A stretch of DNA of 32,000 nt. Origin: Cereibacter sphaeroides 2.4.1 (GTDB lineage Bacteria; Pseudomonadota; Alphaproteobacteria; Rhodobacterales; Rhodobacteraceae). Position 1 is the first letter of the stretch, and each line of letters opens with the position of its first letter. The notes under the pieces are model-generated. The model made no database searches. It worked only from the letters and a program-made list of their open reading frames with translations, and was not told the DNA's origin. The translations under genes were made by a program, and so were the position numbers. Of this stretch, positions 7,596 through 32,000 are shown piece by piece. The stretch is taken from assembly GCF_000012905.2 (NCBI RefSeq), contig NC_007494.2:510001-542000 (forward strand). Direction: 5' to 3'.

Positions 7596-8587
7596 GCTTG
7601 GGTCCCTCCGACCTCGGTTGCGGCGGACGCGGGGCTGCGGGATTCCACGCGCCAGACGTCGGGGTTGATCGCGGTCTCGGGCAGACGGCCCTCGAGCGCG
7701 GTGATGACATGGCGCACGGCCTCGAGGGCCACGCGGCGGAGCGCCTCCTCGGTCGTGCCACCGAGATGGGGCGTGAAGACCACGTTGCCGTGCGCGGCCA
7801 GCGGGCCCGAGGGCGCGCCGGGCGAGCAGACGTCGAGCCCCGCGCCGCCGAGATGGCCAGAGGCCACCGCTTCGAGCAGCGCCGCCTCGTCCACGAGGCC
7901 CGCGCGGGCCATGTTGATAAGGATGGCGCCCGGCCGCATGGCGGCAAAGGCGCGCGCATCCATCATGTGGTGGGTCTCGGGGCGGAGCGGCGTGTGGAGC
8001 GACACGAGGTCGGCCGCGGCCAGCCCTTCGGCAAGGCTCGCCACCCGCTCGCCCCCCTCGATCCGCGGCACGCGCGGCGAATGGACGAGGAGGCGCATGT
8101 CGAAGGCCTGCGCCAGCATCCGCCCGGTCTCGCGGCCGCTGGCCCCCCAGCCCACGACCAGCGCGGTGCGCCCCCGCAGTTCCGAGAAGCGGGCGGATTC
8201 GCGAAAGCCCGTCTTCCCCTCCCGCAGGGCGCGGTCGGCGGCGGGGATGCGGCGGGCCACCGCAAGCGCGAGGCCCACGGCCAGTTCGGCCACCGAGCGC
8301 GCGTTGGCGCCCGGGGTGTTGGCCACGACCACGCCCCTGCGCGCCGCGGCCTCCTTGTCCACCGGATCGTGGCCCGCGCCATGGACCACCACCGCCCGGA
8401 GCCGGTCGCCCGCGGCGAAGGCCGCGGCATCGAGGCCCGCGTCGCGGGTGATGACGGCGTCGATGCCGGCCATGTGGCGCGCCACCGTCGCCATGTCGGG
8501 CGCCGGGCAGAGGATGGGCGCGATCCCGGCCGCGCGCAGGGCGGCGAGACCCGCTTCGTGGATGGGTTGGACGATCAGACAGTTCAT
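7592..8587 (-). CDS. D-isomer-specific 2-hydroxyacid dehydrogenase (phosphoglycerate dehydrogenase-like)
   Basis: ATG at 8585-8587 gives MNCLIVQPIHEAG..., 331 aa. It has the NAD-binding motif ALVVGWGASGRETG, and the INMARAGLVDE and TPHLGGTTEEA motifs. Both its start and its stop overlap the neighbouring genes by 4 nt. Confidence 0.85.
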   Translation of the reverse strand: MNCLIVQPIHEAGLAALRAAGIAPILCPAPDMATVARHMAGIDAVITRDAGLDAAAFAAGDRLRAVVVHGAGHDPVDKEAAARRGVVVANTPGANARSVAELAVGLALAVARRIPAADRALREGKTGFRESARFSELRGRTALVVGWGASGRETGRMLAQAFDMRLLVHSPRVPRIEGGERVASLAEGLAAADLVSLHTPLRPETHHMMDARAFAAMRPGAILINMARAGLVDEAALLEAVASGHLGGAGLDVCSPGAPSGPLAAHGNVVFTPHLGGTTEEALRRVALEAVRHVITALEGRLPETAINPDVWRVESRSPASAATEVGGTQA

Positions 8588-9246
8588 GAGGCACTCGCGG
8601 AAGCGGTCGCCGCGGCAGCGCGGCGCAGACGGAGGAGCACGGCGTCGCGCGCATGTTCGAGATGGGCCCGCAGCCCAGCCTCGACCGCGTCGGCATTGCC
8701 GCTGCGCACGGCTTCGAGGATCTCCAGATGTTCCTCGCAGCCGCGCAGGAACCGTTCGGGCACCTGAGTGTGGTCGAAGATGCAGGTGCGCCGATGCAGC
8801 GTGGCCACCGTCTGGGCCACGGCCTGATTGCCGAACTCGCGCCCGAGCAGGTGGTGGAACTCGTAGTCGGTCTGGCGCTGGAGATCGTTGACCGCAGGGT
8901 CCGACGCCATCAGGAGGCGCACGCGCTCCTCCATCGCATCGACCTGAGCCGGCGGCAGCCGCACCGCCGAGCGTGCCGCGAGCGGCTCGAGCTCCAGCCG
9001 GAGGAAGAAGACCTCCTCGACATCGGCGGCCGTCACGCTGCGCACGCAGGTGAAGCGGCCCTCGACGACGGCGAGGCCCTCGCTCTCCAGCCGCTTGATC
9101 GCCTCGCGCACGGGGGTGCGCGACATGCCGAAGACCTCGCCCAGGGCGGCCTCCTGCAACAGGTCGCCCGATTTCAGCGCGCCTTCGAAGATCATCGAGA
9201 TGATGCGCTGATAGGCCTCGTGGGCGAGCGGTCTGGGGGCACTCAT
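8584..9246 (-). CDS. GntR-family transcriptional regulator (FCD subfamily)
   Basis: HTH motif LQEAALGEVFGMSRTPVREAIKRLESEGLAV. The start is taken at ATG 9244-9246 (MSAPRPL...), with GGAGGA 6 nt upstream. An alternative ATG lies at 9250-9252. The longer ORF up to 9702 runs antisense or out of frame through pxpC. Confidence 0.85.
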   Translation of the reverse strand: MSAPRPLAHEAYQRIISMIFEGALKSGDLLQEAALGEVFGMSRTPVREAIKRLESEGLAVVEGRFTCVRSVTAADVEEVFFLRLELEPLAARSAVRLPPAQVDAMEERVRLLMASDPAVNDLQRQTDYEFHHLLGREFGNQAVAQTVATLHRRTCIFDHTQVPERFLRGCEEHLEILEAVRSGNADAVEAGLRAHLEHARDAVLLRLRRAAAATASASAS

Positions 9247-25268: not shown

Positions 25269-26558
25269 TTGCCGGCTGCGGGCGGGGCCTTTGCTGCCGC
25301 GCGGCAGCCCGCGATCTGGAACCGGCCGCTCCTCGAGCCGCGCATCCTGCGCCTGCATGCCGAGAACGCGGCCTTCCTCGCCGACCGGATTGCCATGGCC
25401 CGCGACGGCCCGAACGAGCGCGCCCTCGATCTCTTCGACCTCGAAGCCCGGCTCGGAGGCCATCTGGCGGCGCTGCGACGGGCGGGTGCGGCGGGCCTCG
25501 AGGCCGCCCTGATGGCCCTCGACGCAGAGCCCGGACCGGGCGAAATCCTTGTGGCGGCGACGCTGTCGCTGGGTCACCGTCCGGAGGACGATCTCTGCGT
25601 TCACCTGCCGGGCCGGCTCCTCGTGCCCGCAGCCGCCCCCGCGATCGGCGCGGCGCTGGCGCTGCTCGATCCGCCGCGGATCGGCCCGCGGCTCAGGGCC
25701 TGGCTGGACGGGGACGATCCTCTGTCCGTCCTCGCCGCGCTCGGGGCCTGCGGCCGGCTTCGCGCGGACCCGGGACCGCGTCTCGCACCGCTCCTGCGCC
25801 ACGGTGCCGCCCCGGTGGCGGCGCGGGCCGTGCGGCTGGCCGGAGAGCTCGGCCGCGCGGACCTCGGCGCACCGATCCTCGACCGGCTCGGCTCCTGTCC
25901 CGAGGCACCCCGCGCGGCGGTGCTGCTGGGCGAGCGCCACCACGCTCCGCCGCATCTCCTGCCCCGGGATCCCGGCGCGCCCCCCGGACGCTGGCGCGAG
26001 GCCGCGGAGCTGCTGCCGCTCGCGGTCCCGCCCGCCGCGGCAAGTGCCGAGATCGCCCGCCTTCTCGGCCATCCCGCCACGCGCCGCTGGGCGGTGGTGG
26101 CCGCCGGGGCGCTCGGTCTGCCCGAGACGCTCGACTGGCTGATCGCACAGATGGAGGACCCGCTTCTGGCGCGCTCGGCCGGGCTCGCCTTCGGGCAGAT
26201 CACCGGGGCCCGGCTCGGGCCCGACAATCTCGAACGCGCGACTTTTCCCGAGGACCCCGAGGATCCGGTGGCCGATGCCTGCCGCCTCGAACGCAGCATC
26301 GAGAGCCACGCCTACTGGCCCGATCCGGAGAAGTGCGGGGCCTGGCTCGCGAAGCGCAGGGCGGGCCTTGGCGCGGGCGAGCGGCACCTCCTCGGGGCCG
26401 CGGCCTGGACCCATGCCGCGCCGCCCGAACCGGGACATCGCACGCAGCTCCAGCTGCGGGCCCTGTCGCTCGAGATCGCCTGCCGCTCCCCCTCGGCCCC
26501 GCTGCCCGACTGGCGCGCGCCGGTGCGGCTCGGCCCCGACGGGTTCGGGAGGGGCTAG
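25269..26558 (+). CDS. HEAT-repeat protein resembling the T6SS-associated TIGR02270 family
   Basis: 429 aa. The N-terminal sequence LRLHAENAAFLADRIAMARDGP...LEARLGGHLAALRRAG resembles the family's conserved start as I remember it. It has HEAT/PBS-lyase-like repeats (AARAVRLAGELGRADLGAPILDRL; RRWAVVAAGALGLPETLDWLIAQMEDPLLARSAGLAFGQI). The only in-frame canonical start after the stop at 25113 is TTG 25269. The family assignment is from memory and was not searched. Confidence 0.6.
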   Translation: MPAAGGAFAAARQPAIWNRPLLEPRILRLHAENAAFLADRIAMARDGPNERALDLFDLEARLGGHLAALRRAGAAGLEAALMALDAEPGPGEILVAATLSLGHRPEDDLCVHLPGRLLVPAAAPAIGAALALLDPPRIGPRLRAWLDGDDPLSVLAALGACGRLRADPGPRLAPLLRHGAAPVAARAVRLAGELGRADLGAPILDRLGSCPEAPRAAVLLGERHHAPPHLLPRDPGAPPGRWREAAELLPLAVPPAAASAEIARLLGHPATRRWAVVAAGALGLPETLDWLIAQMEDPLLARSAGLAFGQITGARLGPDNLERATFPEDPEDPVADACRLERSIESHAYWPDPEKCGAWLAKRRAGLGAGERHLLGAAAWTHAAPPEPGHRTQLQLRALSLEIACRSPSAPLPDWRAPVRLGPDGFGRG

Positions 26559-26559
26559 G

Positions 26560-27582
26560 ATGCGGATCGACAATGCCACCCCCTGGCCCGCGACCTTCAC
26601 CATGGCCTTCGACGCGGCCGGGCACGAGCAGGTGGTGCTGGTCACGAAGGCGAGCTTCGCCCTGCCCCGGGGCACCGGTCCCTGCCAGCCGACCGAGCCG
26701 CTGCCGCTGATCGAGAGCGACCTGTTCGGGGCCGATCCCGCGGCCGATGCGCCGGTGCAGGAATATGACTTCGCCCCGCACAAGCCCTTCTGCGACGTGC
26801 TCCTCCATGGCCGCGCCCACGCGCCCGAGGGCCGGCCCGTCACCGAACTGCCGGTGGGTCTGCGGCTCGGGGGCTGGTCCAAGCGGCTCACGGTCCGCGG
26901 CGCCCGCATCTGGTTGAGGGCCGCGGCGGGCTGGCGGGTCTCCGACCCACGACCCTTCACGAGCCAGCCCATCGGCTATGACCATGCCTACGGCGGCACC
27001 GACCCCGATCCGGGGGGCGGCGGCCGCGCGGCCGTCTTCGAGGAGAACCCCGCGGGCCTCGGCTTCTACCCGCTCCGGCCGGACAGGGAGAGTGCGCCCC
27101 TGCCCCATACGGCCGAAGCCGGCGCGGATGCGACCGATCCCCGCGGCGGGCTCCGACCGATGGCCCTCGGGCCGGTCGGGCGCACTTGGCTGCCCCGCAG
27201 GCGGCACGCGGGCACCTACGACGCCGCCTATTTCGAGAGCCGGACGCCCTTCCTGCCGCTCGATTTCGACCCCCGCTATTTTCAGGCCGCCGCCGAGGAT
27301 CAGCAGATCCCTTATCCCAAGGGCGGAGAGCCCGTCGAGCTCGTGAACCTCTCGCCGCGGGGCCGCATCGCCACCTGGCTGCCGCGCCTGCAGATCCTCG
27401 CCACCTTCGAGCGGCGCTCCGGCCGGCTGACCCAGCGGATCGCCAATCTCGACACGGTGCTGTTCCTGCCGGAGGAGGAGGTGGTCACCCTGACCTTCCG
27501 CACGAGGATCACGGCCGAGCGCGACATCTTCGAATTCGCGCGGGTTCTCGTCTCGGCCCGGCAGGAGGCGACCGATGGCTGA
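26560..27582 (+). CDS. DUF2169-family T6SS adaptor/chaperone
   Basis: ATG 26560 lies 1 nt after the preceding stop, with GGGAGGGG upstream. 340 aa. Family hallmarks are present: VVLVTKASFAL, DFAPHKPFCDVLLHGRAHAP, LTVRGARIW, YDHAYGG, ENPAGLGF, GPVGRTWLPRRRHAGTYD, FLPLDFDPRYFQAA and NLDTVLFLPEE. Confidence 0.85.
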   Translation: MRIDNATPWPATFTMAFDAAGHEQVVLVTKASFALPRGTGPCQPTEPLPLIESDLFGADPAADAPVQEYDFAPHKPFCDVLLHGRAHAPEGRPVTELPVGLRLGGWSKRLTVRGARIWLRAAAGWRVSDPRPFTSQPIGYDHAYGGTDPDPGGGGRAAVFEENPAGLGFYPLRPDRESAPLPHTAEAGADATDPRGGLRPMALGPVGRTWLPRRRHAGTYDAAYFESRTPFLPLDFDPRYFQAAAEDQQIPYPKGGEPVELVNLSPRGRIATWLPRLQILATFERRSGRLTQRIANLDTVLFLPEEEVVTLTFRTRITAERDIFEFARVLVSARQEATDG

Positions 27583-28666
27583 GCTGCGGGGCCTCGCCCC
27601 CGGCCTGTCGGTGGTGGGCTACGGCATGTGGACGGCGCTCGGGCCGGACGGCCCCACGACGGTCGCGGGCCTCGACGCCCGGCTGATCGTCTCGCAGTCG
27701 GGCGACCTGCGCGAGCCCCTGACCGGCGCGGCCCTCCCCTGCTTCCGGCTCGCGGCCCAGCATTGGTGGGCGGGGCCGAGCTTCCTGTCCGAGATGCTTC
27801 TGCCCGTCCTCGGGGAATGCGCCGAGCAGCTGGCCGCACTGCCCGCGCCGCTCCGGCGACCGGCCTCGGAGGTGCCGGTGCTGATCGCCGTGGCCCCGTG
27901 CGGGCGTCCCGCACGCCCGGACGATCTCGAGGCGCGGCTGCTGGCGGAGCTCGAGGCCCGGCTGGGGCCGCTGCCCGAAGGCAGCGCGGTCGTGGGCGCC
28001 GGACGGGTGGGTCTGCCGCATCTGATCGCGCGGGCCGCCCGACAGGCGGGCCGTCACCCGGTGCAGATCCTGATCGGGGTCGAGAGCTTCCTTCTGCAGG
28101 AGATCGTCGATCACTATGCCGACCGTCACCGGCTTTTGTCCGAGGAGAACAGCTCGGGCTTCGTGCCGGGCGAGGCCGCGGCCGCGCTGATCGTGGCGCC
28201 CCGGGGCATGGCGCCCGGTCTGGCGCTGAAGGGCCTCGGCGCGGGCCGCGAGCCTTCGGGTGCAGGCGGCAGCCGCGATGCGCCGGTGACGGGCGAGGGC
28301 CTCACCGATGCGATCCGCGCGGCGCTGGCGGCGGCCGAGATCCCGCTCTTCGACATTCCGATCTTTCTCGGCGACCTGAACGGCGAGCATTTCAAGTTCA
28401 AGGAGGCGATGATCGCCACGATGCGCCTCGACCGTCTGCCGCCCGAGAATGTCTCCCGGCGGCCGCGGGGTCATCCGGAACATTGGAACGCGATCGAGGG
28501 GCTGGGAGAGATCGGCGCGGCGCTGATGCCCGCGCAGCTCGGCTGGGCCTTCGAGGCGTCGCGGAGCGGCCGGCTGCCGCAGGGCCGGGCGCTGGCCTTC
28601 GCCGGCGAGGACGATGGCGCACGGGTGGCGATCGTCGCCGCTGCGGCAGGAGGACCTGTCCGGTGA
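27575..28666 (+). CDS. Thiolase-fold / beta-ketoacyl-synthase-like protein, apparently non-catalytic
   Basis: ATG 27575 overlaps the DUF2169 stop by 8 nt, with AGGAGG 5 nt upstream. 363 aa. KS-like blocks are present (SSGFVPGEAAAALIV resembles RDGFVLGEGAG; GLGEIGAAL resembles TGHLLGAAG). However, the positions aligning to the Cys-His-His triad read A/G, D and E by eye. Confidence 0.75.
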   Translation: MAELRGLAPGLSVVGYGMWTALGPDGPTTVAGLDARLIVSQSGDLREPLTGAALPCFRLAAQHWWAGPSFLSEMLLPVLGECAEQLAALPAPLRRPASEVPVLIAVAPCGRPARPDDLEARLLAELEARLGPLPEGSAVVGAGRVGLPHLIARAARQAGRHPVQILIGVESFLLQEIVDHYADRHRLLSEENSSGFVPGEAAAALIVAPRGMAPGLALKGLGAGREPSGAGGSRDAPVTGEGLTDAIRAALAAAEIPLFDIPIFLGDLNGEHFKFKEAMIATMRLDRLPPENVSRRPRGHPEHWNAIEGLGEIGAALMPAQLGWAFEASRSGRLPQGRALAFAGEDDGARVAIVAAAAGGPVR

Positions 28667-29664
28667 CCGATGTCTATGCCAACGGCCGCGAAGTCTCGGG
28701 CAAGGCCACGCCCAACAAGACGATCAGCGCGCTGCCCGATGTCTGCCTCTCGCCGCCCCCGCCGCCCGCGGGGCCGGTGCCGATCCCCTATCCGAACTTC
28801 GGCACCGCCTCGGACACGTCGGACGGCTGCACCAGCGTCTTTGTGAAGGGCAAGGAAGCGGGCAAGAAGAACGCCTCAAAATATTCTTCGATCAAGGGCG
28901 ACGAGCCCGCCACCCGCAGCTTCGGCGGCAGCGTCGTTTCGCACACGATCACCGGCACGCTGAAATTCGCGGCCTATTCCTTCGACGTGCTGTTCGAGGG
29001 CGAAGGCGCCGAACGGTTCATGGACCTCACCACGACGAACCATATGAACCCGGGCGGCGGCGCCAGCACCAGCGTGGCGCGTCCGCGTCCGCCCAAGCCG
29101 CCGAGCGAGGCCGAATGCAAGCAGATGCGCGCCGACCTTGCCAAGGAACGCGAGACGCTGTCGGGGGCCACGGCCGACAAGCGGGCGACGAAGGGCACCA
29201 TCGCCATCGCCAAACCCTCGAACGGCGGCCGGCAGTTCTCGGCGAGCGGCCAGCTCATGCGCGACAAGCTGTCGGGCAATCCGAACGGCTACATCGATCC
29301 CAAGCCCGCCCGCCATGTCGATGGCAAGGGCCGCCCCTCGAAGGTCTGCGGCGGGCGCAAGCATCACCATCCGAGCGGCGGCAGCGCCAAGCATTGCGAG
29401 GCGCAGTCGGTCGACACGATGAGTTGGGAACCCGGCCCCTCCAAGATCACCTTCGCCATCGACTATCCGGCCATCACCTTCAAGAAGGACAAGCTGGGCC
29501 GCACCCGCAAGATCGTGGATCAGAAGGCCAGGGATCGCCCCTGCCAGAGCTGCCGCCGTCTGCTGAAGAAGGCCTGCGAATGCGGCGTGAAGATCTTCCT
29601 GTGCATGGATGACGGGCCGGTAGACTGGTGCAAGGAACAGGGCTTCGGAAAGGGCGGCGGATGA
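28663..29664 (+). CDS. T6SS effector: N-terminal DUF4150 (PAAR-like) domain plus a C-terminal toxin domain with a deaminase-like HxE...PCxxC signature
   Basis: GTG 28663 overlaps the preceding stop (GTGA), with AGGAGG 9 nt upstream. 333 aa. DUF4150 hallmarks lie in residues 1-128: VYANGREVSGK, ALPDVCLSPPPPPAGPVPIPYPNF, VFVKGKEAG, IKGDEPAT, YSFDVLFEGEGAERFMDLTTTNHMN. After a Pro-rich linker comes a basic C-terminal domain of about 185 aa containing H244-C-E246 (29392-29400) and P293-C-Q-S-C297 (29539-29553). Confidence 0.8.
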   Translation: MTDVYANGREVSGKATPNKTISALPDVCLSPPPPPAGPVPIPYPNFGTASDTSDGCTSVFVKGKEAGKKNASKYSSIKGDEPATRSFGGSVVSHTITGTLKFAAYSFDVLFEGEGAERFMDLTTTNHMNPGGGASTSVARPRPPKPPSEAECKQMRADLAKERETLSGATADKRATKGTIAIAKPSNGGRQFSASGQLMRDKLSGNPNGYIDPKPARHVDGKGRPSKVCGGRKHHHPSGGSAKHCEAQSVDTMSWEPGPSKITFAIDYPAITFKKDKLGRTRKIVDQKARDRPCQSCRRLLKKACECGVKIFLCMDDGPVDWCKEQGFGKGGG

Positions 29665-30440
29665 GACCAGCGGAAGAAATCGCGCGGATGCTGCCGATCC
29701 CGGCGGACCTCGGCCGGGGCGCCTTCACCGGCAAGTGGCGCAGCGCCTCGGCGCATATCAGCCCCGAGCGGATGACGCCGCTGAAGGAGGCGCTACTCTT
29801 CAAGACCAACGCCGCTCTCTATTCCCTCGTCTCGGCCGCGATGGTCTGGCAGGCCGAACGGCTCCGCGAGCAGACGGACGTCTCGCCGCTCCTCGACATG
29901 GCCGAGGCCCTCTATGCCTGGCAGCAGGACTGGCACTGGTTCGGCCGGACGCCCGCAATCGCCGACATCGACACGATCGACGAGGCGCCGAGGCCGCAGG
30001 GCAGCGTCCTGATGATGCTCGACCTGATCCATCAGGACCACATCTACACCTCCGGGCACTGGCCCTCCGAACCGATCTTCTCGGTCACGGCGGACATGCT
30101 GGTGCTGACGCGGTTCAACCTGCCTGCGGACGCGGTTCCTGCCTTCGATGCCTGGGTCGAGGCCGTGATCGCGCGGATGGATCTTGTCGCGGAATTTCCC
30201 GAGCATGGCGAGACGCCCGAGCTCGAGGTGGGCGACACGCCCGAGCGGCGCGCCTGGGCGGCGAAAGTGATGGGCCGGCCGCTGCCGCCGTCGGTCCTCG
30301 ACCTCTCGCGCGATCCGGACCCGTCCCGCTGGCCCGAAGAGTGGCGCGACCTGCTGGCCCGGCTCGACTGGAACCGCAACCCCTTCCTCCGCCACCCCCC
30401 CGGCACGCTACGCCCGCGGCAGGACGGCGAGGTGCCATGA
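29661..30440 (+). CDS. Candidate immunity protein 1 (no family recognised)
   Basis: ATG 29661 overlaps the toxin stop (ATGA), giving MRPAEEIARML..., 259 aa. It is acidic and Trp-rich, sits immediately downstream of the toxin, and shares a collinear motif block with the next ORF. Confidence 0.6.
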   Translation: MRPAEEIARMLPIPADLGRGAFTGKWRSASAHISPERMTPLKEALLFKTNAALYSLVSAAMVWQAERLREQTDVSPLLDMAEALYAWQQDWHWFGRTPAIADIDTIDEAPRPQGSVLMMLDLIHQDHIYTSGHWPSEPIFSVTADMLVLTRFNLPADAVPAFDAWVEAVIARMDLVAEFPEHGETPELEVGDTPERRAWAAKVMGRPLPPSVLDLSRDPDPSRWPEEWRDLLARLDWNRNPFLRHPPGTLRPRQDGEVP

Positions 30441-30462: not shown

Positions 30463-31149
30463 GTGAGCGCCGTCTACGACCATGTCCGCAGCCGGACAGC
30501 CGACGAAGACTCGCGCGATCTGTCCTTCGCCTGGGACCAGTGGCGTTACACCGACTACTTCCTTTTCGAGGAGGATACCTCGGCCGCCCCCTTCGAGAAC
30601 CTCTCCGATCTGGCCTGCCGTGGCCTCGTCATCGCCGTGGCCGAGGCCATCACCGCACGGTTCCATGCGCACCGCGGCACGGAGGAGGCGCGGTCCTATC
30701 TCGATGCCGCCTGGGCCACGATGCTGCGCGAGGGCGCCTGCGACTACGCCCTCCTGCCCGCCGAGGACTGGCCGGGGCCGGTGCGTGGCGCCCTCCGGGC
30801 CGCCATGCTCGTCGTCAACGACACGCTCCACGAGGCGCGCGACGATGGCGACTTCCCCGCCCGCTGCGTCTGGATCCTGCAGCTCGCGCGCCACGTCCTG
30901 CCGCCGCGCCTTCGACCCGAGTTCGAAGCCTGGGTCGCCGTCGCCACCTCGCGCCTCGCGCGCCACTGGCCGGTGCCCGAGCACCGGAGCGGCCTCTTCG
31001 CCGAGAGCTTCGACCGCGGCCCGCCGGTCGGGCCCTGCACCTTCCTGCCGCGCGATCCCGGCACCCCCGAGAGCGCCGCGGCCTGCCTCGCCCGCCATCT
31101 CGCGACCCTCGCCGGCAACCCCTGGCTCTTGCCCCCCGATACCGCCTAG
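30463..31149 (+). CDS. Candidate immunity protein 2 (paralogue of the preceding ORF)
   Basis: GTG 30463 with AGGAG 9 nt upstream. 228 aa. It shares PxF[DE]AWV...R[ML]......PEH with immunity candidate 1 (PEFEAWVAVATSRLARHWPVPEH against PAFDAWVEAVIARMDLVAEFPEH). The spacing back to an upstream P.G anchor is nearly equal (69 against 71 residues). Confidence 0.6.
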   Translation: MSAVYDHVRSRTADEDSRDLSFAWDQWRYTDYFLFEEDTSAAPFENLSDLACRGLVIAVAEAITARFHAHRGTEEARSYLDAAWATMLREGACDYALLPAEDWPGPVRGALRAAMLVVNDTLHEARDDGDFPARCVWILQLARHVLPPRLRPEFEAWVAVATSRLARHWPVPEHRSGLFAESFDRGPPVGPCTFLPRDPGTPESAAACLARHLATLAGNPWLLPPDTA

Positions 31150-31544
31150 TTCAGTTGCACGCTCGCCCCCTGGAGCCTGTTCGCACCGCTGGCCCGACTC
31201 AGGATCTCGGTGCCGCGGATCGTGACCCGCCCGTCCGGCGCCAGCGTGATCGAGGCGCGCCCGCAGCGCAGCACCACCTCGCGCCGCCCCTCCAGAACGA
31301 GGCGCGTTCCGTCGAGTTCGGCCTCCGGCACCGCCCGGCGGATCAGGCCCAGCACCACCGGAGAGGCTCCGACCTCGGCCACCACCGCCTCCGCTCCCAT
31401 ATCGGCGGCGGAGACCGCCACGACGGTTTCGGCCAGCGCTTCCGCCCCGCCGATCTCCACCCGCAGGAGCCCGCAGGGATCGATCCCGAGGATCCGGCCC
31501 CGCAGCAGGCGCGAGCCCGCCGCGGCAAAGCCACCGTCATGCAT
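31146..31544 (-). CDS. Small gp5/VgrG-like protein (OB-fold-like N-terminus plus short beta-helix-like C-terminus; DUF6484-like by recollection)
   Basis: ATG at 31542-31544 with GGAGG 6 nt upstream. 132 aa. The start overlaps the clpV stop by 8 nt (ATGCATGA). The C-terminal sequence EVVLRCGRASITLAPDGRVTIRGTEILSRASGANRLQGASVQLN resembles VgrG/gp5 beta-helix repeats. Confidence 0.65.
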   Translation of the reverse strand: MHDGGFAAAGSRLLRGRILGIDPCGLLRVEIGGAEALAETVVAVSAADMGAEAVVAEVGASPVVLGLIRRAVPEAELDGTRLVLEGRREVVLRCGRASITLAPDGRVTIRGTEILSRASGANRLQGASVQLN

Positions 31545-32000
31545 GATCCGCCTCCGTCTCGAACGCATAGGAAAAGCCTGCGGGGCCGCCGGTGAGGGTC
31601 ACCCGGCTGAAGGCCGCCCCCGCGAGCTGGCGCTCGAGAAGCTTGCGGCTCAGCTCCGGCAGCAGGGTGCCGCTCAGGATCGCGTCGATCATCCGCCCCC
31701 CCGACTCGACCTCGGTGCAGCGGGCGCGGATCGTCTCGAGCACGCCCTCGCCCAGAACCAGCTCGGCGCCGTGCCCCGCCTTCAGCCGCCGGGCAATGGC
31801 CTCGAGCTTCTGCCCCGCGATGGCCGCGATCATCCGGTCCGAGAGCGGCAGGAACGGCAGCACGATCATCCGCCCCAGCAGCGCGGCCGGAAAGACCTGC
31901 AGAAGCGGCGCGCGGAGCGTGGCCGAGACCCGGGCCAGATCCTGCCCCGCCGCCTCCACGATCTCGTCGGTGCCGACGTTCGAGGTCAGCAGGATCACCG
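31537..32000 (-). CDS. tssH: ClpV/TssH-type AAA+ ATPase, C-terminal part (5' end beyond the window)
   Basis: The frame is open to the window edge. The sequence ILLTSNVG...LLQVFPAALLGRM.VLPF.PL... matches the D2-small domain of Clp/Hsp100 ATPases. The assignment to ClpV rather than ClpB rests on the T6SS context. Confidence 0.75.
   Translation of the reverse strand, partial: VILLTSNVGTDEIVEAAGQDLARVSATLRAPLLQVFPAALLGRMIVLPFLPLSDRMIAAIAGQKLEAIARRLKAGHGAELVLGEGVLETIRARCTEVESGGRMIDAILSGTLLPELSRKLLERQLAGAAFSRVTLTGGPAGFSYAFETEADHA

Follow-up and report, generated by a model that had tools for sequence, protein, structure and literature searches.

A predicted deaminase-fold toxin domain from a new, very small sequence family in an effector of the Cereibacter sphaeroides type VI secretion system

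Introduction

Each of the characterised toxin-deaminase families (DddA, SsdA, and BaDTF3) has a distinct substrate or context preference, and these enzymes have been adopted as genome-editing tools. Tse7 of Pseudomonas aeruginosa, a toxin of another kind, is a Tox-GHH2 nuclease. For PIPY effectors, a loading module of synteny type A that includes an armadillo-like gene has been described (PMC11883445), and a PRK06147-like gene is known as a Class II Tvp accessory (PMC13373197). In the Tde5-Tdi5a/Tdi5b system, one type VI secretion system (T6SS) toxin is followed by two immunity genes, the products of which are structurally distinct (PMC13392607). Here we analyze a 32,000-nucleotide stretch of the Cereibacter sphaeroides 2.4.1 genome (contig NC_007494.2, positions 510,001 to 542,000 of the forward strand; hereafter the window, in which all unqualified coordinates are given), where a gene encoding a PIPY effector (28663..29664, forward strand) is trailed by two candidate immunity genes, d1 and d2.

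We consider it probable that this gene encodes a specialised T6SS effector equipped with a zinc deaminase toxin domain, that the domain belongs to a new and very small family, and that protection is afforded by d1 and d2. Both the superfamily and the biological role are known, and the sequence family is new; it stands out by its two insertions, its extra set of cysteines, and the two paralogous immunity-like genes that are conserved with it. In the literature that could be searched, no publication on this effector, its family, or the T6SS effectors of C. sphaeroides was retrieved.

Results

The effector and its reading frame

The effector is a protein of 333 amino acids (aa) composed of a PIPY domain, a proline-rich linker, and a toxin domain, as judged from its translation, Pfam matches, coding statistics, and a matching NCBI entry. 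The PAAR-like/PIPY (DUF4150) spike-tip domain occupies aa 20–130 (28720..29052, forward strand; Pfam PF13665, Tox-PAAR-like, E = 7.6e-33) and contains the PIPY motif PVPIPYP, which is read directly from the sequence and fits the P(I/V)P(Y/F) pattern. The C-terminal toxin domain spans aa 150–333 (184 aa; 29110..29661, forward strand), and conservation, AlphaFold2 modelling, Foldseek searches, and profile comparisons all bear on its predicted deaminase fold. The GTG start codon of the effector gene overlaps the upstream stop codon as GTGA and is preceded by an AGGAGG site, and because the GC content at third codon positions (GC3) is 0.87, equal to that of the adjoining genes, we regard the reading frame as genuinely coding. 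A 99% identical NCBI protein of 333 aa with the identical start is found in many strains of Cereibacter (Rhodobacter) sphaeroides, and its public annotation is limited to “DUF4150 domain-containing protein.”

The overall GC content of positions 28001–30000 is 0.66–0.70, compared with 0.73–0.74 in the neighbours, at the same GC3 (0.87); the dip falls on codon position 1 and is probably due to the lysine-rich protein. A foreign origin of the effector, considered on account of the GC content of 0.66, was rejected, given the neighbour-like GC3 and the confinement of the drop to the first codon position. The cluster of the window protein also includes a frameshifted copy, broken right after ATADKRATK and represented by a 252-aa part (P0002/P0032) and an 81-aa part (P0031). 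This copy originates from one public assembly (945-kb contig) and one Logan read assembly, and is explained either by faulty sequencing or by a toxin that some strains have lost through natural inactivation.

A very small toxin family with an invariant predicted catalytic set

The toxin domain has strikingly few relatives. A word-indexed search of 5.8 billion proteins returned one real homologue (49% identity) in addition to the frameshifted copy, HMMER, run exhaustively over 1.84 billion cluster representatives, gave 9 matches, 7 of which were real homologues, and a profile search of the 5.8 billion proteins yielded 16 clusters, bringing the related sequence clusters to about 20 in total among billions of proteins. 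Patterns of the closest subclade, run against 185,579 GTDB species-representative genomes, matched only Rhodobacter sp. NSM (the source species itself was not among the matches), and tblastn against 72,556 plasmids gave no match.

Conservation was assessed in an alignment of 21 family members, which form four subclades and share 21–86% identity with the window domain (domain numbering plus 149 gives protein numbering). Nine alignment columns are invariant (S77, H95, E97, P144, C145, C148, C158, C165, and C174 in domain numbering), and 5 of these 9 are the residues of an HxE and a PCxxC motif. In the window protein, the former is H244-C-E246 (29392..29400, forward strand), located at the start of helix 2, with a His predicted to bind zinc and a Glu predicted to be catalytic, both invariant in 21/21 sequences; the latter is P293-C-Q-S-C297 (29539..29553, forward strand), located at the start of helix 3, in which the Pro and the two Cys, the predicted zinc ligands, are invariant. 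Two members carry a PCxxxC variant, so that the family motif is PCx(2-3)C, and the spacing between HxE and PC ranges from 33 to 46 residues. An earlier, sequence-only reading of this DNA had pointed out both motifs and the 46 residues separating E246 from P293, and the translation of 28663–29664 bears out these positions. In a shuffling test, the pattern [HC]xE-x(20-60)-PCxxC arose in 0.18% of 200,000 shuffles of the Cys-rich domain.

The same alignment revealed additional conserved cysteines, namely, C305, C307, C314, and C323 (29575..29631, forward strand) and, further upstream on the same strand, C152 (29116-29118) and C229 (29347-29349). In domain numbering, C158, C165, and C174 are invariant, C3 and C80 are conserved in at least 90% of the sequences, and C156 is moved to position 153, three places along the helix, in one subclade. 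Judging from the sequences, the extra cysteines could form a second metal site or disulfides.

The toxin occurs as a stand-alone protein (~227 aa) in P0010, P0015, P0017, P0020, and P0022, which belong to one subclade, and in the fused form in P0021 and P0023 of the same subclade. In L003, one of five related loci (L001 to L005) and the one encoding P0010, a separate 129-aa PIPY protein (7599-7988) is directly followed by the toxin (8001-8684). The stand-alone and fused toxins mark the domain boundary and show that cargo and fused forms both exist. One subclade carries an inserted helical segment (RQWQARVE.RI...), the regions concerned being residues 209-250 of P0006 and the N-terminal part of P0003. 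A Methyltransf_30 match of P0006 (E = 1.3e-4) falls on this segment and one family member also matches MnmC2 (E = 0.0021); both matches are probably spurious.

Predicted fold

The AlphaFold2 model of the toxin domain, built from a 9-sequence alignment, has a predicted local distance difference test score (pLDDT) of 79.5 and a predicted template modelling score (pTM) of 0.78. It comprises, in domain numbering, helix 1 (2-20), strand 1 (31-36), strand 2 (42-45), an insert that is modelled poorly, helix 2 (96-103, with HxE), strand 3 (112-118), a hairpin insertion (122-136), helix 3 (146-157, with PCxxC), strand 4 (161-166), and strand 5 (169-172). The resulting order, alpha1-beta1-beta2-[insert]-alpha2-beta3-[hairpin]-alpha3-beta4-beta5, is that of the deaminase fold as laid out by Iyer et al. 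2011 (PMC3239186), with beta4 and beta5 predicted to form a C-terminal hairpin. The core bears two insertions: the first, of about 40 residues, comes after strand 2 and ahead of helix 2, and the second, a beta-hairpin, follows strand 3 and precedes helix 3. The secondary-structure order anticipated in the sequence-only reading, including the inserted hairpin, was reproduced by the model element by element.

When the model was compared with the PDB using Foldseek, the top 50 matches were all cytidine deaminases (CDAs) or blasticidin-S deaminases (BSDs), the best values being E = 0.019, a probability of up to 0.85, and a target-normalised template modelling (TM) score of up to 0.54. For a predicted structure, this outcome amounts to a strong enrichment and not to a significant pairwise match. 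A separate, earlier low-confidence model, based on a 2-sequence alignment, gave a near-identical list, of which the first 47 matches were all deaminases, and a Foldseek search against viral predicted structures returned nothing significant. Structure prediction combined with Foldseek, which had been suggested as a check alongside the sequence-only reading, thus produced the deaminase element order and exclusively deaminase top matches, none of them significant individually.

Profile comparisons

The window domain had no Pfam match at E ≤ 1, a single NCBIfam match (TIGR01354, E = 0.23), and no family assignment in a PADLOC scan. Among the 21 family members, sub-threshold matches to deaminase profiles recur in the correct register. 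In Pfam, these include dCMP_cyt_deam_1 in 3/21 members (best E = 0.0056, spanning HAE to PCxxC), YwqJ-deaminase (E = 0.0017), SNAD4, and NAD1, and in NCBIfam, cyt_deam_tetra in 5 members (the most frequent) and cyt_deam_dimer in 2. Profile–profile comparisons were carried out with hhalign, for which the query sequences were identical to PDB chains 1JTK_A (CDA) and 6U08_A (DddA). The family profile aligned with that of the Bacillus subtilis CDA over the PCxxC helix and strand 4 (E = 2.3e-4, probability 44%), with the P293-C-Q-S-C297 stretch matched to PCGAC of the enzyme, and greedy extension placed H95 and E97 on C53 and E55 of the CDA. The gain obtained with the CDA template profile, which consists almost only of sequences with at least 79% identity, was modest (probability from 22% to 44%). 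No meaningful alignment was obtained by hhalign with Escherichia coli TadA.

A local resemblance to DddA, also put forward in the sequence-only reading, found no support. The hhalign probability was 0.9%, over 28 columns only, no SCP1.201/DddA Pfam match was obtained, and DddA-type chains lay outside the leading Foldseek matches; kinship with DddA was accordingly rejected. More broadly, the Pfam models SCP1.201 (PF14428), DYW, and Pput_2613 (PF14427) had no match in the 21 members at E ≤ 10. The proposal of a deaminase-fold toxin domain itself fared well, being supported by the invariant motifs, the AlphaFold2 topology, the deaminase-only top Foldseek matches, and the in-register sub-threshold profiles. 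Designation as a new clade is justified because the Pfam and NCBIfam models all stay under their cutoffs and the family has so few members. Very probably, the toxin domain belongs to the deaminase superfamily and to none of its described families.

The domain contains 9 Cys and 5 His, weak Zn_ribbon_Com matches fall on the PCGHC segment in six members, every deaminase match stops short of significance, and many PIPY effectors are nucleases (PMC11883445). These features would also suit a Cys/His-rich metal-binding toxin unrelated to deaminases, be it a beta-beta-alpha-Me/HNH-like enzyme acting through an HHH triplet or a zinc ribbon, in which HxE and PCxxC would be coincidental. We consider this very unlikely, as the invariant residues are exactly those that make up the catalytic set of deaminases, the topology of the model and all top structural matches are likewise those of deaminases, and the Pfam and NCBIfam scans of the 21 members yielded no nuclease family even at E ≤ 10, the only other recurring profile matches being zinc-ribbon models on the CxxC segment. 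The HHH triplet to which the sequence-only reading had drawn attention is indeed present upstream of HCE (residues 234-236, nucleotide (nt) 29362) and is kept only in the closest subclade; since it is not conserved beyond that subclade, we conclude that it is not catalytic, and it was rejected as a nuclease motif. With no nuclease profile match and no conservation of HHH, the HNH or beta-beta-alpha-Me nuclease fold that had been named as the outcome contradicting a deaminase did not materialise.

Candidate immunity genes

Immediately downstream of the effector gene, d1 (29661..30440, forward strand; 259 aa) starts within an ATGA overlap with the effector stop codon and has orthologues in L001 to L005, and its paralogue d2 (30463..31149, forward strand; 228 aa) starts at a GTG codon that an AGGAG site precedes by 8 nt; each is a probable immunity component. 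Orthologues of both genes follow the toxin in 6/6 loci, that is, in the window and in L001 (4095-5572), L002 (9172-10451), L003 (8728-10198), L004 (8125-9593), and L005 (6551-8036), where the coordinates are those of the d1/d2 pair. The d1 and d2 proteins are mutually homologous, measure about 200–270 aa across the loci, and have no relatives in Pfam, NCBIfam, PADLOC, or the PDB. They are devoid of signal peptides and of transmembrane or hydrophobic segments, and because signal peptides and transmembrane segments are missing, we propose that the toxin acts in the cytoplasm. The proteins encoded by Rhodobacter sp. NSM (L005) are 88% (toxin domain), 79.5% (d1), and 71% (d2) identical to those of the window, and a faster divergence of d1 and d2 than of the toxin is typical of toxin-immunity systems. 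We regard d1 and d2 as a probable immunity pair, which may constitute a heterodimeric or dual immunity system.

The linkage to d1 and d2 also bears on whether the domain is an enzyme at all. Noncatalytic proteins with the deaminase fold exist, and the toxin domain might in principle be a catalytically inert binding or structural module, with any toxicity arising from the spike itself. This appears exceedingly unlikely, considering that the full catalytic set, with the Glu among it, has not varied even between deeply diverged members and that the tightly linked d1 and d2 diverge fast (79% and 71%, compared with 88% for the toxin, in L005), in the manner typical of toxin-immunity systems.

Delivery module and genomic neighbourhood

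Three forward-strand genes precede the effector gene: a HEAT/armadillo-like accessory gene of the effector-loading module (25269..26558; weak match to Pfam HEAT_2, E = 3.2e-4), a gene for a DUF2169 (TvpA-type) chaperone for the PIPY/DUF4150 domain (26560..27582; Pfam DUF2169, E = 2.5e-88), and an accessory gene of the PRK06147 thiolase-like (KAS-like) type (27575..28666; NCBIfam NF004798 PRK06147, E = 4.6e-127). A HEAT_2 gene occupies the equivalent position in L003. The start of the DUF2169 gene, ATG 26560, was picked by the N-terminal match to the L001–L004 orthologues and the upstream GGGAGGGG site. On the reverse strand, beyond d2, lie a DUF6484-like (TvpC-type) accessory gene (31146..31544), recognised by homology to genes of L001 and L003, and the 3′ end of clpV, encoding the T6SS ATPase, which runs off the window (31537..31998; Pfam ClpB_D2-small, E = 3.5e-11). 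A direct Pfam scan of the 31146..31544 gene gave nothing at E ≤ 1e-3; the label is based on its L001 homologue, which has a faint DUF6484 match, and on its L003 homologue, which is a DUF6484 gene. The order of genes around the effector matches synteny type A and Class II Tvp (PMC11883445, PMC13373197), and in the metagenome loci L002 and L003 the same module is found beside TssM, TagF, VgrG, FHA, and ClpV. The delivery side of the effector is therefore well understood. Because VgrG is present in these two related loci, a vgrG gene may lie beyond the edge of the window.

The DUF6484-like gene directly follows clpV with an 8-nt overlap, whereas in L003 the arrangement is ClpV-VgrG-DUF6484 on one strand; in both the window and L001, the effector operon is convergent with the clpV/DUF6484-like pair. 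The portion of the window from position 1 to approximately 25,100 contains unrelated metabolic and transport genes, including those for aminotransferases, an RraA-like protein, a 2-hydroxyacid dehydrogenase, an M24 peptidase, a carboxyltransferase, a TRAP DctPQM transporter, an amino-acid ABC transporter, a CN-hydrolase, an amidohydrolase, an Asp/Glu racemase, and a flavin-reductase domain protein, and the T6SS island therefore begins at about 25.1–25.3 kb. Scans of the window for Rfam families and for tRNAs gave no matches.

Discussion

Proposed mechanism and substrate

By extension from published homologous systems, the PIPY/DUF4150 cone would cap the VgrG spike, and the DUF2169, PRK06147-like, HEAT-like, and DUF6484-like proteins would help to load the effector. 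Our computational analysis positions H244, C294, and C297 as putative zinc ligands and E246 as the putative proton-shuttling catalytic residue. Once injected, the domain would deaminate a base hydrolytically, in a zinc-dependent manner, in the cytoplasm of the target cell, and the translationally coupled, paralogous, cytoplasmic d1 and d2 proteins would protect the producer.

A number of points weigh against this interpretation. All Pfam and NCBIfam deaminase matches lie far under the curated cutoffs, the hhalign probability for the B. subtilis CDA is only 44%, and searches with the window domain and the family profiles against PDB sequences gave nothing relevant at E ≤ 10. The Foldseek matches are individually nonsignificant (none at E ≤ 0.001) and show large RMSDs (root-mean-square deviations), and the two motifs could have drawn AlphaFold toward a deaminase fold. 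The zinc site and the Cys cluster are putative, deduced from conserved residues and from the order of elements in the model. The assignment of d1 and d2 to immunity is drawn from their position, and the 32-kb window contains no vgrG. As for the target, the closest structural enzymes, CDA and BSD, use free nucleosides or small molecules and not DNA, and the charge of the domain varies across the family (pI 4.7–9.9), so that RNA or nucleotides may be the substrates.

Under the deaminase interpretation, the most likely substrate is DNA cytosine, by analogy, because experimentally tested toxin deaminases act on DNA (PMC7901873); this applies to all of the families tested so far, BaDTF1, BaDTF2, and BaDTF3 (PMC7901873; PMC13346905). 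The window domain is strongly basic (36 K+R versus 20 D+E, pI 9.7), as the sequence-only reading had emphasised, and so are most members, which also favours DNA; as a trait of the family, basicity does not hold, since several members are acidic or neutral (pI 4.7–6.1) and, in this respect, atypical of DNA binders. Considering these members, together with the tetrameric CDA and BSD as the nearest structural and profile neighbours and the lack of specific similarity to DddA, it is possible, if rather less likely, that a domain with the deaminase fold acts on RNA (tRNA, rRNA, or mRNA) or on free cytidine or adenine nucleotides or nucleosides, and hence hits translation or nucleotide pools.

A more ambitious proposal, which we find doubtful when taken as a whole, is that the clade combines a substrate or specificity new among interbacterial toxins with a stabilising second Cys metal cluster and an obligate heterodimeric immunity complex of d1 and d2. 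Possibilities for such a specificity include context-independent cytosine deamination in double-stranded DNA, adenine deamination, and attack on RNA or nucleotide pools. If new specificity and heterodimer immunity were both true, the system would provide a base-editor scaffold and an immunity mechanism that are both new.

Significance

The toxin domain is a candidate scaffold for a new base-editing enzyme. The family is extremely rare and therefore represents a part of the sequence space of deaminase folds that had gone unexplored, and searches seeded from annotated deaminase families would miss it. C. sphaeroides is genetically tractable, which makes work on toxicity, immunity, and mutational signatures straightforward.

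Comparison with known systems

The best structural and profile matches of the toxin domain are to the tetrameric CDA/BSD core, as represented by the B. subtilis CDA (1JTK), Mycobacterium marinum Cdd (4F3W), and BSD (2Z3J), with which it shares the order of elements, the C-terminal beta4-beta5 hairpin, and the PCxxC motif opening helix 3. Unlike in these enzymes, the first zinc ligand is His instead of Cys, an insert of about 40 residues precedes helix 2, a hairpin insert precedes helix 3, and extra Cys residues are conserved; furthermore, the window domain is joined to a T6SS spike-tip domain and accompanied by a pair of immunity-like genes, and the similarity falls under every threshold. The extra cysteines loosely recall the second zinc site of DYW deaminases, which involves two His and a C-terminal CxC.

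Among toxin families, the best match is to the YwqJ-like deaminases (PF14431), obtained in register with P0019 (E = 0.0017 with the isolated domain and 0.0072 with the entire protein); with 17.0 bits against a cutoff of 25.9, P0019 is the only one of the 21 members to match this model. The YwqJ-like group has been described as having one insert that follows strand 2 and precedes helix 2, in which a His is conserved, and another that separates strand 3 from CxxC (PMC3239186; Iyer et al. 2011). Inserts are present here at both places, but the His (HHH) is limited to the closest subclade, and the immunity genes are not of the SUKH or Imm6 types.

With DddA/BaDTF1, SsdA/BaDTF2, and BaDTF3, the effector shares the overall plan of a T6SS-delivered C-terminal deaminase toxin with HxE and PCxxC motifs and, as predicted here, downstream cytoplasmic immunity. 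It differs from DddA, SsdA, and BaDTF3 in that the carrier is PIPY rather than PAAR/Rhs and that two paralogous immunity-like genes, not one, follow the toxin. HTE and PCxxCK-like motifs, which have been reported for Pput_2613, also occur in some family members; of these Pput_2613-like/BaDTF3 traits, however, HTE is found in only 5/21 members, and the window protein has HCE and PCQSCR.

The delivery genes most closely resemble those of P. aeruginosa Tse7 and Vibrio parahaemolyticus VP1415, in which DUF6484, armadillo/HEAT-like, DUF2169, and PRK06147 thiolase-like genes are followed by the PIPY effector, whereas the toxin domain is unrelated to those of Tse7 and VP1415. Finally, as in the case of Tde5, the one recent precedent for dual immunity, the toxin is trailed by two immunity-like genes, and unlike Tdi5a and Tdi5b, d1 and d2 are paralogous and conserved across the whole toxin family.

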